This document shows positions 16,319-26,387 of a DNA stretch of 64,000 nt, in pieces. Numbering within the stretch: the stretch's first letter is position 1; the number at the start of each line of letters is the position of its first letter. This stretch comes from Candidatus Pelearchaeum maunauluense (lineage in GTDB: Archaea; Thermoproteota; Nitrososphaeria_A; Caldarchaeales; Caldarchaeaceae), in assembly GCA_030059675.1 (NCBI GenBank), contig JANVYQ010000006.1, positions 32,001 through 96,000 of the forward strand. Reading direction: 5' to 3'. The notes beneath the pieces are model-generated. The model was given only the letters and a program-made list of their open reading frames with translations. It made no database searches and was not told the DNA's origin. Both the position numbers and the translations under genes were made by a program.

Positions 16319-17647
16319 ATGGTGAAGGCTCTAATGGGGAGGTCGGCCAGCGAGATAATAGAGAGGGACTCGCGTCTCTTTATGCGCTGCTACCCGGCCC
16401 GTACAAAACTCGTAATAGCACGTGGCCGTGGAGCTGAAGTATGGGATGTTGAGGGAAAGAGATACTTAGACCTCTTCTCAGGTATTGCGGTGAATAACGT
16501 AGGCCACTGCCATCCGCGCGTTGTTGAAGCTATACGAAGGCAGTCTGAGGAACTTATACATACGTCCATGCTCTATTATAACGAGACTGTGCTAAAGCTT
16601 GCCGAGAAGCTGGCTGGAATCGTGCCCAGCGGTCTCTCCCGTTTCTTCTTCGCCAATAGCGGGGCTGAGGCTGTTGAAGGGGCTGTGAAGCTGGCCAAGA
16701 AGTATGCGGCAAAACGCGGTATGGGGGGAGCGCAGGTAATAGCTCTTGACTGCTCCTTTCATGGACGGACATCACTAGCGCTAACCCTGACAGGCCAGAA
16801 AAAGTATAAACAAGGCCTGGGGAATTTCGCCAACTCTCCAGGCGTTGTGCACGCGCCCTCACCATACTGTTACCGCTGTCCCCTGGGTCTCAGATACCCA
16901 GAATGCGGAATAGCATGCGCAGATGCCCTAGAGAGGGTTTTTGAGTTTAGAACCTCTGGAGAGGTTGCCGCCGTTATTGTTGAGCCTGTACAAGGGGAGG
17001 GTGGAATAATAGTCCCGCCTGACGAGTATCTACCGCGTGTGCAGAGCATATGCCGCGAGCATGGCGCTGCGTTTATCGTGGATGAAGTCCAGACAGGGCT
17101 TGGGAGAACTGGCAAGATATTCGCGGCAGAACACTGGGGACTTGAGCCTGACATAATGACCATGGCTAAGGCGCTTGGGGGAGGGCTCCCAATAGGAGCT
17201 ATAGCTGCGCGCGAAGAGGTAGCTAATGCTTTCGAGGCTGGAGACCACTTCTCAACATTCGGCGGCAACCCAGTATCATGCGCCGCTGCTATAGCTGCCA
17301 TAGATGTCCTCATTGATGAGAAGCTGCATGAGAGGGCTGAGAAGCTGGGAAATCTTCTGCTCAAAATGTTTAGAAATGCTCAGGATGAGGCCGAGCTCAT
17401 AGGCGATGTGAGAGGGAAGGGGCTTATGATAGGTATTGAGCTGGTTAAGGATAGGGAGGGTAAGCAACCAGCGTCTGACGAAGCAAGCAAAACCAGCGAG
17501 GAAGCGCTGAAGAAAGGCATCATAATAGGCGTGGGAGGAGTGAAAAAGAATGTCATAAGAATACAACCACCACTGGTCATAACTGAGGAACAGGCACAGA
17601 AAGCAGCGGAGGAAATCATCGCAATAATCAAACAGATTAAGAAATGA
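16319..17647 (+). CDS. Class III aminotransferase, 4-aminobutyrate/acetylornithine aminotransferase-like
   Basis: NSGAEAVE, SFHGRT, DEVQTGLGRTG, AKALGGG, STFGGNP, IRIQPPL. Confidence 0.9.
   Translation: MVKALMGRSASEIIERDSRLFMRCYPARTKLVIARGRGAEVWDVEGKRYLDLFSGIAVNNVGHCHPRVVEAIRRQSEELIHTSMLYYNETVLKLAEKLAGIVPSGLSRFFFANSGAEAVEGAVKLAKKYAAKRGMGGAQVIALDCSFHGRTSLALTLTGQKKYKQGLGNFANSPGVVHAPSPYCYRCPLGLRYPECGIACADALERVFEFRTSGEVAAVIVEPVQGEGGIIVPPDEYLPRVQSICREHGAAFIVDEVQTGLGRTGKIFAAEHWGLEPDIMTMAKALGGGLPIGAIAAREEVANAFEAGDHFSTFGGNPVSCAAAIAAIDVLIDEKLHERAEKLGNLLLKMFRNAQDEAELIGDVRGKGLMIGIELVKDREGKQPASDEASKTSEEALKKGIIIGVGGVKKNVIRIQPPLVITEEQAQKAAEEIIAIIKQIKK
16868..16924 (+). repeat. 57-bp perfect inverted repeat, copy 2
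   Basis: tgttaccgctgtcccctgggtctcagatacccagaatgcggaatagcatgcgcagat, identical to the reverse complement of 13289-13345. Confidence 0.95.
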
Positions 17648-17702
17648 ACAGCCTGTTCTATTATCTAGAAATAAATACATCCAGCAGGCTCTTATTTTTG
17701 AG

Positions 17703-18149
17703 ATGAAAGAGGGTTATGCATCTATTCTAGCTGCATCACTGGTGTCTGTGGCTGTTATTGCTGTGGGTTTTCTCGTACTGAGCTGGCAGCAGTGCCAATA
17801 CACTACCACGCTTGTAGAAGACGCTGCCCTTAGACGTGATGGTGTTGTGCTAATAAGTAGCGTAGGAAAATGCGGAAGCCTGGAAAAGCCTACAATAACG
17901 TATAAAAGGGCTGGAGAATACCTAATCCTAACATACAGCGAGCCAGCTAACAATATCTGCTACCGCCACATCATAGAGAGTGTCAAAACCCAGGAAGGAG
18001 ATACGCCGCTAATTAGGATAGAGCTACGCCTAGTAGAGACGAGCGAGGCCTGTGTTATGTGCGTAGGCTACATAACAACAACACTCACTATAGGCCCGCT
18101 GCCCGAAGGGGCGCGGGTGTATGTTAATGGCTTATTGGCCGCTGCGTAA
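17703..18149 (+). CDS. Membrane-anchored Cys-containing extracellular protein (weak PrcB-like resemblance)
   Basis: N-terminal TM, five Cys including ACVMCVG, TATA-like element upstream. Confidence 0.65.
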   Translation: MKEGYASILAASLVSVAVIAVGFLVLSWQQCQYTTTLVEDAALRRDGVVLISSVGKCGSLEKPTITYKRAGEYLILTYSEPANNICYRHIIESVKTQEGDTPLIRIELRLVETSEACVMCVGYITTTLTIGPLPEGARVYVNGLLAAA

Positions 18150-18161
18150 AAGGCTTATATA
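18145..18161 (+). promoter_or_regulatory. BRE/TATA promoter of the aromatic amino acid operon
   Basis: cgtaaaagg followed by CTTATATA (18154-18161); expected TSS near 18183-18187, just upstream of the leader SD. Confidence 0.65.
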
Positions 18162-18201
18162 GAAAAAGGGAAATCAAACAAAACACGACCAGGAGGTGCG
18201 C

Positions 18202-18276
18202 GTGGTGAGGGCAGTAGGACTAACCTGTACAGGCTTTAGCGCCTTCACCACGTTTAGCTATTATTATCGCTGGTAA
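18202..18276 (+). CDS. Putative Phe/Tyr/Trp-rich attenuator leader peptide M(V)RAVGLTCTGFSAFTTFSYYYRW
   Basis: SD GGAGGTG at 18192-18198, GTG at 18202 or 18205, TAA at 18274-18276; 7 of the last 13 codons are aromatic; lies in the 5' leader of the shikimate operon. Confidence 0.8.
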   Translation: MVRAVGLTCTGFSAFTTFSYYYRW

Positions 18277-18335
18277 GCCGCCTCCGGTTTCGGTTCTTGT
18301 TTGTTCCTTTTTCTCCGTTTCTGGGGGGTGGTTTT
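18277..18335 (+). promoter_or_regulatory. Putative attenuator: anti-SD segment, U-rich tract and ask SD
   Basis: GCCGCCTCC (18277-18285) is complementary both to the ask SD (18324-18332) and to the leader SD; T-rich tract at 18294-18314. Confidence 0.6.
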
Positions 18336-19559
18336 ATGGGCAAAATAGTTGTAGTGAAGTTTGGTGGTTCTGTCCTCTCCGATGAGCGAAGCATAGAACG
18401 CGCAGCTAGGTGGTTGAAGGGTCTCCGTGATAAGGGCTTAAGCCCTGTTGTCGTCGTTTCGGCTCTACGCGGCGTAACTGATGAGCTACTTAAGACAGCA
18501 CAGCGCCTAAACCCCGAAGCCCCACCTGAGCTCATGGATGAAGTACTCGCCATGGGCGAGAGAACCAGCGCGAGGCTCTTCGCATTAGCCCTAACCAGAG
18601 AAGGCGTGGACGCCCTCGTGGTAGACCCAGACTCTACGCTATGGCCTGTTATAACCGACGAGAAACACCTAGACGCTACGCCTATACTGGACGAATGCAG
18701 GAGAAAAGCCTCCGAGGGTCTTCTGCCAGAGATTGCGGCAGGTAGGGTTCCAGTGGTCTGCGGCTACATAGGGGTATCCAAGACTGGGCGTATAACCACG
18801 CTGGGACGTGGGGGAAGCGACACTACAGCGGTTCTCCTAGCCAACTGTCTAGATGCCGAGGAGGTCGTCTTGGTGAAAGATGTGGGCGGGATACATTCGG
18901 CAGACCCGCGGAAGACACGAGAAGCCGAGGTGATAGAAACCATGAGCGCCTCTGAGGTTCTCCAGCTAACCACCGGTGGCGCCAAGGTGCTCCACGCAAA
19001 AGCGCTACGCTATATGAATGACAGTATGAGAATACGGGTAGGGACTCTTGAATCCCTTGAAGAAGGCGGGACGCTCATAACAGCTTCAGGTATGCCAAAA
19101 CTGGAGGTGGTGGCTACCCACGATAACGTGACGATGGTTACTATAATTGGTAAGGATATGGGAGAGCCTTCGAAATTGGCGAAAATGGTGGAAGCCCTCG
19201 TGGAGGCTGACGCGAACCTTTTGGCAGCGTCAATAGAGGAGAACTCGCTAATAATATACTTGGATGGTGATGGTGATGTGGTGGAGAAACTGCATGACCT
19301 TCTCGTATCCAGCAGGCTTGGGAAGGCGATAAGCCACTTCCCAAACCTCAGTATGATAAAAGTTTCAGGAACCATGCTGGAGACAAGCCCAGGCGTCATT
19401 CACAAGATAACACAACCCCTAGCAGCGCAGGCGATAAATGTCTATGGCCTTGTTACGATAAGCTCTTCTGTCCGCCTTTTCGTCTCGTCCAAAGAAGCCT
19501 CAAAGGCTATTAACTTGATACGTGACGGGTTGAGGGAGGTAGTGGATGAAGCAGCTTAA
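18336..19559 (+). CDS. ask: Aspartate kinase with C-terminal ACT domains
   Basis: VVKFGGS, VVSA, TLGRGGSDTTA, GAKVLH; start reassigned to ATG 18336 behind GGGGGTGG. Confidence 0.95.
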   Translation: MGKIVVVKFGGSVLSDERSIERAARWLKGLRDKGLSPVVVVSALRGVTDELLKTAQRLNPEAPPELMDEVLAMGERTSARLFALALTREGVDALVVDPDSTLWPVITDEKHLDATPILDECRRKASEGLLPEIAAGRVPVVCGYIGVSKTGRITTLGRGGSDTTAVLLANCLDAEEVVLVKDVGGIHSADPRKTREAEVIETMSASEVLQLTTGGAKVLHAKALRYMNDSMRIRVGTLESLEEGGTLITASGMPKLEVVATHDNVTMVTIIGKDMGEPSKLAKMVEALVEADANLLAASIEENSLIIYLDGDGDVVEKLHDLLVSSRLGKAISHFPNLSMIKVSGTMLETSPGVIHKITQPLAAQAINVYGLVTISSSVRLFVSSKEASKAINLIRDGLREVVDEAA

Positions 19560-26138: not shown

Positions 26139-26387
26139 ATGGTGAAGCAGGCAGTAGTAGCAGATTATGACGATGCTGTAACAATAGCTAAACAATATGT
26201 TAAGGCAAGCTATAGGCGGGCATCAGATATACAGGTCAAACGTGCGTGGATGGAGCCTCATTGGGAGGAGGGGCTGTGGATAGTTGAGCTCTCGTTCAAA
26301 CATAGGCCTAAGCTGTTGTCAAGAGCTAAGCGCATTAAGCTGCGGCTGAGGATAGACCCTATATCAGGGGAGGTTAAGGGAGATTAA
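26139..26387 (+). CDS. Small basic hypothetical protein (PepSY-like pattern)
   Basis: Own TATA-like site; AVTIAK...WIVEL...IDPISGEV pattern. Confidence 0.6.
   Translation: MVKQAVVADYDDAVTIAKQYVKASYRRASDIQVKRAWMEPHWEEGLWIVELSFKHRPKLLSRAKRIKLRLRIDPISGEVKGD

Follow-up and report, generated by a model that had tools for sequence, protein, structure and literature searches.

A candidate ribosome-mediated attenuator with a Tyr- and Phe-rich leader peptide upstream of the ask-asd-aro operon of Candidatus Pelearchaeum maunauluense

Introduction

In bacteria, attenuation by leader peptides is a textbook mechanism that relies on the coupling of transcription to translation, and the locus described here raises the question of whether a short open reading frame (ORF) in an archaeon could work in the same manner. 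Coupling of transcription and translation has been observed in archaea, according to the available part of a review. The locus lies in a window of 64,000 nucleotides (nt) from Candidatus Pelearchaeum maunauluense (GenBank assembly GCA_030059675.1, contig JANVYQ010000006.1, positions 32,001 to 96,000 of the forward strand); the window is the whole stretch of DNA that was analyzed, coordinates are positions in it, and the genome under study is labeled G000. An earlier note on this DNA had pointed to a leader ORF rich in phenylalanine, tyrosine, and tryptophan codons upstream of ask, the first gene of an eight-gene operon, and had interpreted it as an attenuator. Judged from sequence comparisons and predicted folds, the leader is quite probably a ribosome-mediated attenuator of this ask-asd-aro operon, which would sense charged Tyr- and Phe-tRNA and, marginally, Trp-tRNA. 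The reading is built on the ORF and its translation signals, a frame-specific enrichment of aromatic codons, conservation of the leader in two archaeal phyla, and a stable helix that begins from the stop codon.

The leader ORF and its conservation

The TATA box, the Shine-Dalgarno (SD) sequence, and the short ORF with seven aromatic codons among its last 13, as claimed in the earlier note, are all present in the sequence (Table 1). The translation reads M(V)RAVGLTCTGFSAFTTFSYYYRW, with aromatic codons at 18235, 18244, and 18253 (F), 18259-18267 (YYY), and 18271 (W), so that the last 13 codons hold Phe three times, Tyr three times in tandem, and Trp once. The ORF upstream of the leader ends with a TAA at 18147-18149, and the promoter-like motif predicts a transcript start at about 18180-18190, which would make the leader the first ORF on the mRNA. 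The SD sequence had been called near-perfect; the archaeal small-subunit (SSU) rRNA of this genome has a 3' end that reads ...GGATCACCTCCTA, and the leader SD is therefore a perfect 7-nt match to it. Between the leader stop codon and the ask ATG (18336) lie 59 nt. The 5' leader of this biosynthetic operon thus includes a short ORF that has its own translation signals. No second copy of the 186-nt leader DNA occurs in the genome, where the sequence matches itself only.

Across the genome, 24 of 73,696 stop-terminated frame segments have at least seven aromatic codons in the last 13, and the leader ranks joint second of 1,967 short ORFs upstream of long ORFs when F, Y, and W are scored in a 10-residue window; taken alone, this rarity is suggestive only. 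None of 200 dinucleotide shuffles of the leader region reaches seven aromatic codons. With the ask protein as query, orthologs were found in 39 of 76 species genomes of the same class and in 76 of 401 genomes sampled from the phylum, and 85 regions upstream of ask orthologs were compared: 38 from the same class, seven from named metagenome-assembled genomes (MAGs), and 40 from other families of the phylum. A scored ORF had a start codon, was 8-45 codons long, and ended 15-125 nt before ask; aromatic codons were counted in its last 13, and 200 dinucleotide shuffles per region (17,000 in total) served as the control. At least seven aromatic codons were found in 47 of the 85 real regions versus 20 of the 17,000 shuffles, and at least five in 57 regions versus 397 shuffles, counts that overstate independence because the compared sequences are relatives. 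At the threshold of five, the leader is found in 18 of 38 regions of the same class, four of the seven named MAG loci, and 35 of 40 regions from other families of the phylum. The tails of related leaders include FSRYFYYRF, FFAFWSYYYFAPA, FFSFDYYFYYFN, NPYYYYYYYCFF, FGFFYGFYFYFYFGP, RFFGYFYFYYFK, and WRFYSFGYFFYN, and the conservation of a short ORF with C-terminal aromatic codons despite nucleotide divergence, for which the earlier note had proposed to look, is borne out by these regions. A search of genome contigs for related loci found no close kin, only distant named MAGs.

These comparisons bear directly on the possibility of a chance ORF in a T-rich intergenic region. The 24 aromatic tails that arise by chance in this genome would allow for it, but conservation across families and two phyla contradicts it, as do the 43 of 85 regions in which none of the 200 shuffles matches the observed aromatic count. 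Such an explanation is extremely improbable, and on the sequence comparisons the leader is not a chance ORF.

Coding signature and start signals

Leader statistics were taken from 55 distinct leaders, with the tail defined as the last 13 codons (715 codons altogether). Aromatic codons make up 419 of the 715 tail codons (59%) versus 54 of 740 (7%) in the rest of the ORF, and by residue the tails contain 200 Tyr, 199 Phe, and 20 Trp codons. The earlier note had proposed all three aromatic amino acids as the sensed products; the codon signal agrees for Tyr and Phe, but Trp is minor. It had also remarked on threonine codons, which are a true feature of this genus but are not conserved (114 of 1,455 leader codons), so that co-sensing of Thr is unsupported. 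In two leaders of family f15 (L158 and L160) a Thr run precedes the aromatic tail, MNKPIATTTTTQFGYFSGYWTFSY, and this run could have a local role, since Thr is another product fed by Ask and Asd.

Of the aligned codon columns, 16 hold aromatic codons only but use more than one of them, through TAT/TAC, TTT/TTC, or Tyr/Phe swaps, and six further columns are aromatic with one codon only. Orthologous leaders have diverged in sequence and yet retain the enrichment of codons for the end products. In 47 of the 55 leaders an SD core lies 3-17 nt before an in-frame start, versus 24% of other start-like triplets in the same regions, and the SD-bearing leader ORFs cluster at 23-29 codons. In 53 of 55 a BRE/TATA-like motif (AA..TTWWWW) precedes the leader start by 30-90 nt (median 47), and the same loose motif is found in the spacer in 10 of 55.

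If the leader is translated, then it might sense something other than charged tRNA, either by a TnaC-like arrest of the ribosome by the nascent aromatic-rich peptide when free aromatic amino acids are present, or by serving ask through constitutive coupling, ribosome standby, or melting of structure. The tail motifs kept within lineages, SF(D/G/E)Y.FYY in f15 and FWSY.YFA(L/P)A in g10/g14, are in keeping with this, as is the common TAA-GCC stop context (TAA in 35 of 55 leaders, with GCC next in 23 of 55). Across lineages, however, composition alone is kept, and tails such as YYYYYYYCFF, FYGFYFYFYFGP, FSYYYRW, and SYTYSYRYSYTYRV have no common motif. That Tyr and Phe codons replace each other freely is more in line with codon sensing than with a specific arrest peptide, and constitutive coupling leaves the enrichment for the products of the pathway itself unexplained; sensing of this other kind is unlikely.

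Table 1. Features of the leader region and operon in the window
Feature	Start	End	Strand	Description
Promoter, BRE/TATA-like	18146	18161	+	GTAAAAGG + CTTATATA; CTTATATA at 18154-18161, with an A-rich BRE-like stretch 5' of it
Leader SD (segment A)	18192	18198	+	GGAGGTG; exact complement of the 16S 3' end CACCTCC
Leader ORF	18202	18276	+	24 codons from GTG 18202 or 23 from GTG 18205; stop TAA 18274-18276; tail FSAFTTFSYYYRW
13-bp stem	18200	18253	+	18200-18212 pairs with 18241-18253; encloses the start codons and pairs them with the codons A-F-T-T
Anti-SD mimic (segment B)	18277	18287	+	GCCGCCTCCGG; directly 3' of the stop codon; can pair with the leader SD (A) or the ask SD (C)
T-rich spacer	18288	18322	+	T5 run at 18308-18312; loop of the B:C helix
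ask SD (segment C) and ATG	18323	18338	+	GGGGGGTGG; from sequence and predicted fold
Eight-gene operon	18336	26096	+	ask, asd, ADH synthase-type aldolase, DHQ synthase II, aroD, aroE, GHMP-type shikimate kinase, EPSP synthase

RNA structure of the leader and spacer

In this genome the B:C pairing is the minimum-energy fold and the A:B pairing is the alignment fold, with a z-score of -3.1 for the post-stop window. The 62 nt from the stop codon fold more stably than shuffles: among the 55 leaders, z was below -2 in 35 and below -3 in 21 (median -2.66). In 50 of 55 the 5' strand of the post-stop helix starts within 0-6 nt of where the stop codon begins, a position that is not discriminating because 59% of shuffles do likewise. 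An anti-SD-like motif follows the stop codon in 13 of 23 loci of the same class by script, versus 9% of background windows, and three loci of genus g7 missed by the script bear the same gcctctctctga when read by eye. The ask SD region is the predicted helix partner in g1, g2, and seven of 11 g10/g14 loci. P1, a second helix, is formed by the leader SD or start region and the end or middle of the ORF, and the 13-bp stem of Table 1 is also kept in L002, a genome of the same genus. A minority of lineages have a hairpin with a T run between it and the SD, an arrangement that looks terminator-like by eye (L129, L130, L140, and L158). Archaeal RNA polymerase and termination signals differ from those of bacteria; a sigma-70/terminator scan returned terminator-like hits in the spacer, but the scan is unsuited to archaea and its hits were not used. 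The T-rich spacer of this genome is a possible archaeal termination tract.

Since helices are conserved, an alternative is an untranslated cis-regulatory RNA whose structure would be recognized by a protein or a ligand, with the reading frame and the aromatic codons as by-products of U/A-rich linkers and helices. Both P1 and the post-stop hairpin are consistent with it, and some aromatic codons do lie within helix strands (for example TTC TGG AGC in g10). In the alignment folds, changes on both sides of a pair occur in three of nine pairs of the post-stop hairpin in the Bathyarchaeia-type group and in five of 29 pairs in genus g10, all of the latter in the P1 extension; the g10 hairpin that has the stop codon in its loop shows one-sided changes only. 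A compensatory P1 change between L003 and L004, seen by eye, turns a Phe codon into Ile, indicating that RNA structure is also under selection. A purely structural role does not readily account for a frame that in 47 of 55 leaders runs without interruption between an SD-bearing start and a point just short of the hairpin, its length conserved at 23-29 codons, for third-position and Tyr/Phe swaps in unpaired columns, or for the concentration of aromatic codons in the tail compared to elsewhere in the ORF. Rfam searches also speak against a known RNA family: across 17000-19000 only noise was returned, with no match, including to Phe_leader and Trp_leader, at E up to 10, and there was no leader-family match at E up to 1 in eight related loci. 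A structured RNA without translation is therefore quite improbable.

The operon and the distribution of the leader

The earlier note had identified a shikimate-type operon downstream of the leader, and Pfam supports this for all eight genes (AA_kinase+ACT, semialdehyde dehydrogenase, DeoC-type aldolase, DHQS II, DHquinase_I, shikimate dehydrogenase, GHMP kinase, and EPSP synthase). The genes are tightly packed, with overlaps or gaps of 14 nt or less, and together correspond to the archaeal pathway that leads from aspartate semialdehyde to chorismate (the ASA/DKFP route). DHQS II lies 0-2 kb downstream of ask in all five leader-bearing genomes tested. The ORFs flanking the operon, at 17703-18149 (148 amino acids, upstream) and 26139-26387 (82 amino acids, downstream), have no Pfam match.

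The leader is present in named Bathyarchaeia MAGs, in other genomes of the class to which G000 belongs, and at some Asgard loci; L044, named Candidatus Bathyarchaeota, and L145, from the genomes sampled in the phylum, have the same leader, which places Bathyarchaeia in this phylum. Among 201 genomes from the phylum of Candidatus Jordarchaeia, taken here to be an Asgard lineage, an ask ortholog was found in 12, giving 16 scorable loci, four of which have aromatic tails (for example MPSWSYFTSFSFYSYFRF and MAGFSYTYSYRYSYTYRV). All four of these are ask-ADHS-DHQS or ask-asd-ADHS operons, in which ADHS is the ADH synthase, and the leader-bearing named Bathyarchaeota loci likewise have one of these gene orders. 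Loci below the leader threshold include two of four in family f6, nine of 12 in genus g3, and the named MAG loci L041, L045, and L047. Genus g7 has only four aromatic codons in the scored window because its ORF extends eight codons beyond a GYSYYRYS block.

Several further observations were made at loci of these groups. L028 (family f3) has a frame, ..LSYYYYFN.., that lacks a start codon and is located 5' of the apparent promoter (a TATA-like box); it may be a decayed leader. All three f3 loci have a conserved ATGCGGTGGTGA..GAGAGGCGG stretch immediately 5' of ask. The Jordarchaeia-type loci L168-L173 have a stand-alone ask paralog, and some 80-190 nt before it sits a conserved mini-ORF of 9-13 codons, M(W/R)MDYFF.., within a long-range helix GATGTGGATGGATT ... 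AAATCCACATCC. In these genomes no aromatic leader precedes the other ask paralog, which is linked to the operon (L180-L184). Genus g3, of the same family as G000, has ask apart from the asd-aro operon (L005-L017 and L165); the leader of that aro operon has a short non-aromatic ORF, MLLAALLKTLISRA, and some of the ask genes retain a weakened aromatic leader, such as MEAFTGFGRFKYY.

Proposed mechanism and points against it

If attenuation is the function of the leader, then the predicted pairings suggest how it may work. The transcript would begin at about 18180-18190, 5' of the strong SD, and the leader of 23-24 codons would be translated first. Segment B, right after the stop codon, would form a helix with one of two partners, the ask SD (C) or, ahead of the T-rich tract, the leader SD (A). 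When aromatic amino acids are plentiful, the ribosome would reach the stop codon and leave, allowing B to pair, and ask would be left untranslated and/or RNA polymerase would stop in the T-rich tract. When they are scarce, the ribosome would stall in the C-terminal aromatic run and occlude or abut B, so that the helix is blocked and the operon is expressed. Occlusion of the post-stop strand by a stalled ribosome would give the logic expected of a biosynthetic operon. Control may be translational (B:C), transcriptional (A:B plus the T-rich tract), or both, and the wiring may differ by lineage; the common denominator would be aromatic codons clustered at the end of the ORF and, right behind them, a strand whose pairing is needed to switch the operon off. 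The attenuator interpretation of the earlier note is supported by the conserved aromatic leader, the promoter, the SD and start signals, and the post-stop helix, from which we infer translation of the leader, stalling of the ribosome, the direction of the switch, and the level of control (translation or transcription).

A number of results weigh against the attenuator reading, in addition to the relatedness of the compared sequences. A look-up for 17700-19200 listed no sequencing run, and assemblies seem to be the sole record of these lineages, the named ones being MAGs. The whole leader of G000 folds no better than its shuffles (z of -1.45 and -1.57), and it has no canonical hairpin-plus-U-run terminator. 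When the ribosome footprint was forced unpaired and the probability that the ask SD region (18321-18329) is unpaired was calculated, simple occlusion opened the ask SD only modestly: from 0.15 in the free RNA to 0.33 with the ribosome on the last codons at 37 C, with 0.13 for a ribosome at the first Tyr, and from 0.25 to 0.33 at 65 C. An extra hairpin in the g10/g14 and f26/f30 leaders has the stop codon within its loop, and the switch may therefore follow a different logic from lineage to lineage. The linked operon is kept with the leader absent in three of three f3 loci, two of two f18 loci, and the one f44 locus, as well as in Asgard L176 and L180-L184, and in L011 the expected start-codon position is occupied by ATA. 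In genus g3, asd and ADH synthase follow ask in no locus, and a degenerate leader with at least five aromatic codons is still with ask in only three of 12 loci. DHQS II is elsewhere in the genome in both g3 genomes tested, and one g3 genome has a separate aro operon without an aromatic leader, which opens with a 350-residue ORF read as asd by size and position. Finally, cognate leaders before other amino acid operons of G000, for which the earlier note had suggested a scan, did not materialize: none was found before pheA, the aroC operon, or trpA, and a genome-wide scan of short ORFs found none before other amino acid genes.

Other observations were made in the course of the genome-wide scan. 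The short ORFs that scored highest for His, Thr, or Trp lie before unrelated genes (Fe-ADH, peroxiredoxin, helicase, Toprim, FBPase, and others), and an aromatic short ORF at C3:25045-25137 was rejected as it includes the TATA-like box of the downstream gene itself. A short ORF at C2:155511-155579, MRTSRALSGMVRWWRRVRRGLW, has three Trp codons and lies 126 nt before the gene for a PALP enzyme (C2:155706-156689), a pyridoxal-phosphate enzyme without assigned specificity. The SSU rRNA gene of this genome is split over two contigs (C18:5-1390 and C10:57608-58376); the 1,386 bases on C18 cover only SSU model positions 830-1467, a mismatch that suggests an inserted stretch (intron) of about 750 nt in that segment.

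Comparison with known systems

The closest known systems are all bacterial, namely aroR-aroF, pheL, and the ermC type. In Corynebacterium glutamicum, according to the available passages of the aroR paper, the leader ORF aroR lies upstream of aroF (DAHP synthase) and encodes Phe-Tyr-Phe, and stalling raises expression (PMC11802643). As far as those passages go, the likeness lies in a short ORF with mixed Phe and Tyr codons before the first gene of the common aromatic pathway, and the differences are that aroR is bacterial, has Phe-Tyr-Phe only, and works with a classical terminator. The archaeal leader has 5-10 aromatic codons in the last 13, precedes the ASA/DKFP route (ask-asd-ADHS-DHQS II), lacks a canonical terminator in G000, and has no sequence homology to aroR. 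For pheL, the part of the source available describes runs of end-product codons near the leader stop followed by alternative RNA structures (PMC3082878), and the pheL-pheA and trpL leaders of Enterobacteria resemble the archaeal one in both respects; their logic, with a stalled ribosome as the ON state, is also the one proposed here. The difference is that the post-stop strand of G000 partners an SD and not a terminator arm, and that Rfam gives no match. In ermC, as summarized in the uORF4u paper, a ribosome stalled on the leader frees a sequestered downstream ribosome-binding site (RBS). The predicted B:C helix of G000 fits such a scheme of RBS release, as in the translational attenuation of ermC and cat; however, stalling there is drug-induced and peptide-specific, whereas here it would reflect a shortage of aromatic aminoacyl-tRNA.

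In archaea, ribosome profiling (Ribo-seq) of Haloferax volcanii and Methanosarcina mazei has found small ORFs in 5' untranslated regions, which were called "reminiscent" of leader peptide genes or potential upstream ORFs. These are likewise archaeal upstream ORFs, and the main-text passages available report no amino acid bias, cognate operon, or mechanism for them. The available passages of four further papers (PMC2965389, PMC10450193, PMC6393860, and PMC12125101) have no bearing on archaeal leaders. The earlier note had held such leaders to be essentially undescribed in archaea, and this agrees with a full-text literature search, the coverage of which excluded most subscription journals and supplements, in which no archaeal amino-acid-sensing leader peptide was found.

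Significance

The balance of evidence leans toward a widespread, probably old archaeal class of amino-acid-sensing leaders in Bathyarchaeia, the class of this genome, and some Asgard archaea, in which stalling at Tyr and Phe codons would lead to expression of the ASA/DKFP pathway; in the lineage of Candidatus Pelearchaeum this would occur via a three-way switch made of two SD sequences and an anti-SD mimic, and not via a bacterial-type terminator. Gene callers miss the element, and it is without a match in Rfam. The leader would mark this ask paralog as dedicated to aromatic biosynthesis, would offer a concrete cis-element for studies of coupling and termination in archaea, and would provide a compact aromatic-responsive part for archaeal genetics. 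Conservation of a Tyr/Phe leader as far as Asgard archaea would show that ribosomes serve as metabolite sensors in archaea and, if the reading is true, this would be the first ribosome-mediated attenuation in the archaeal domain.

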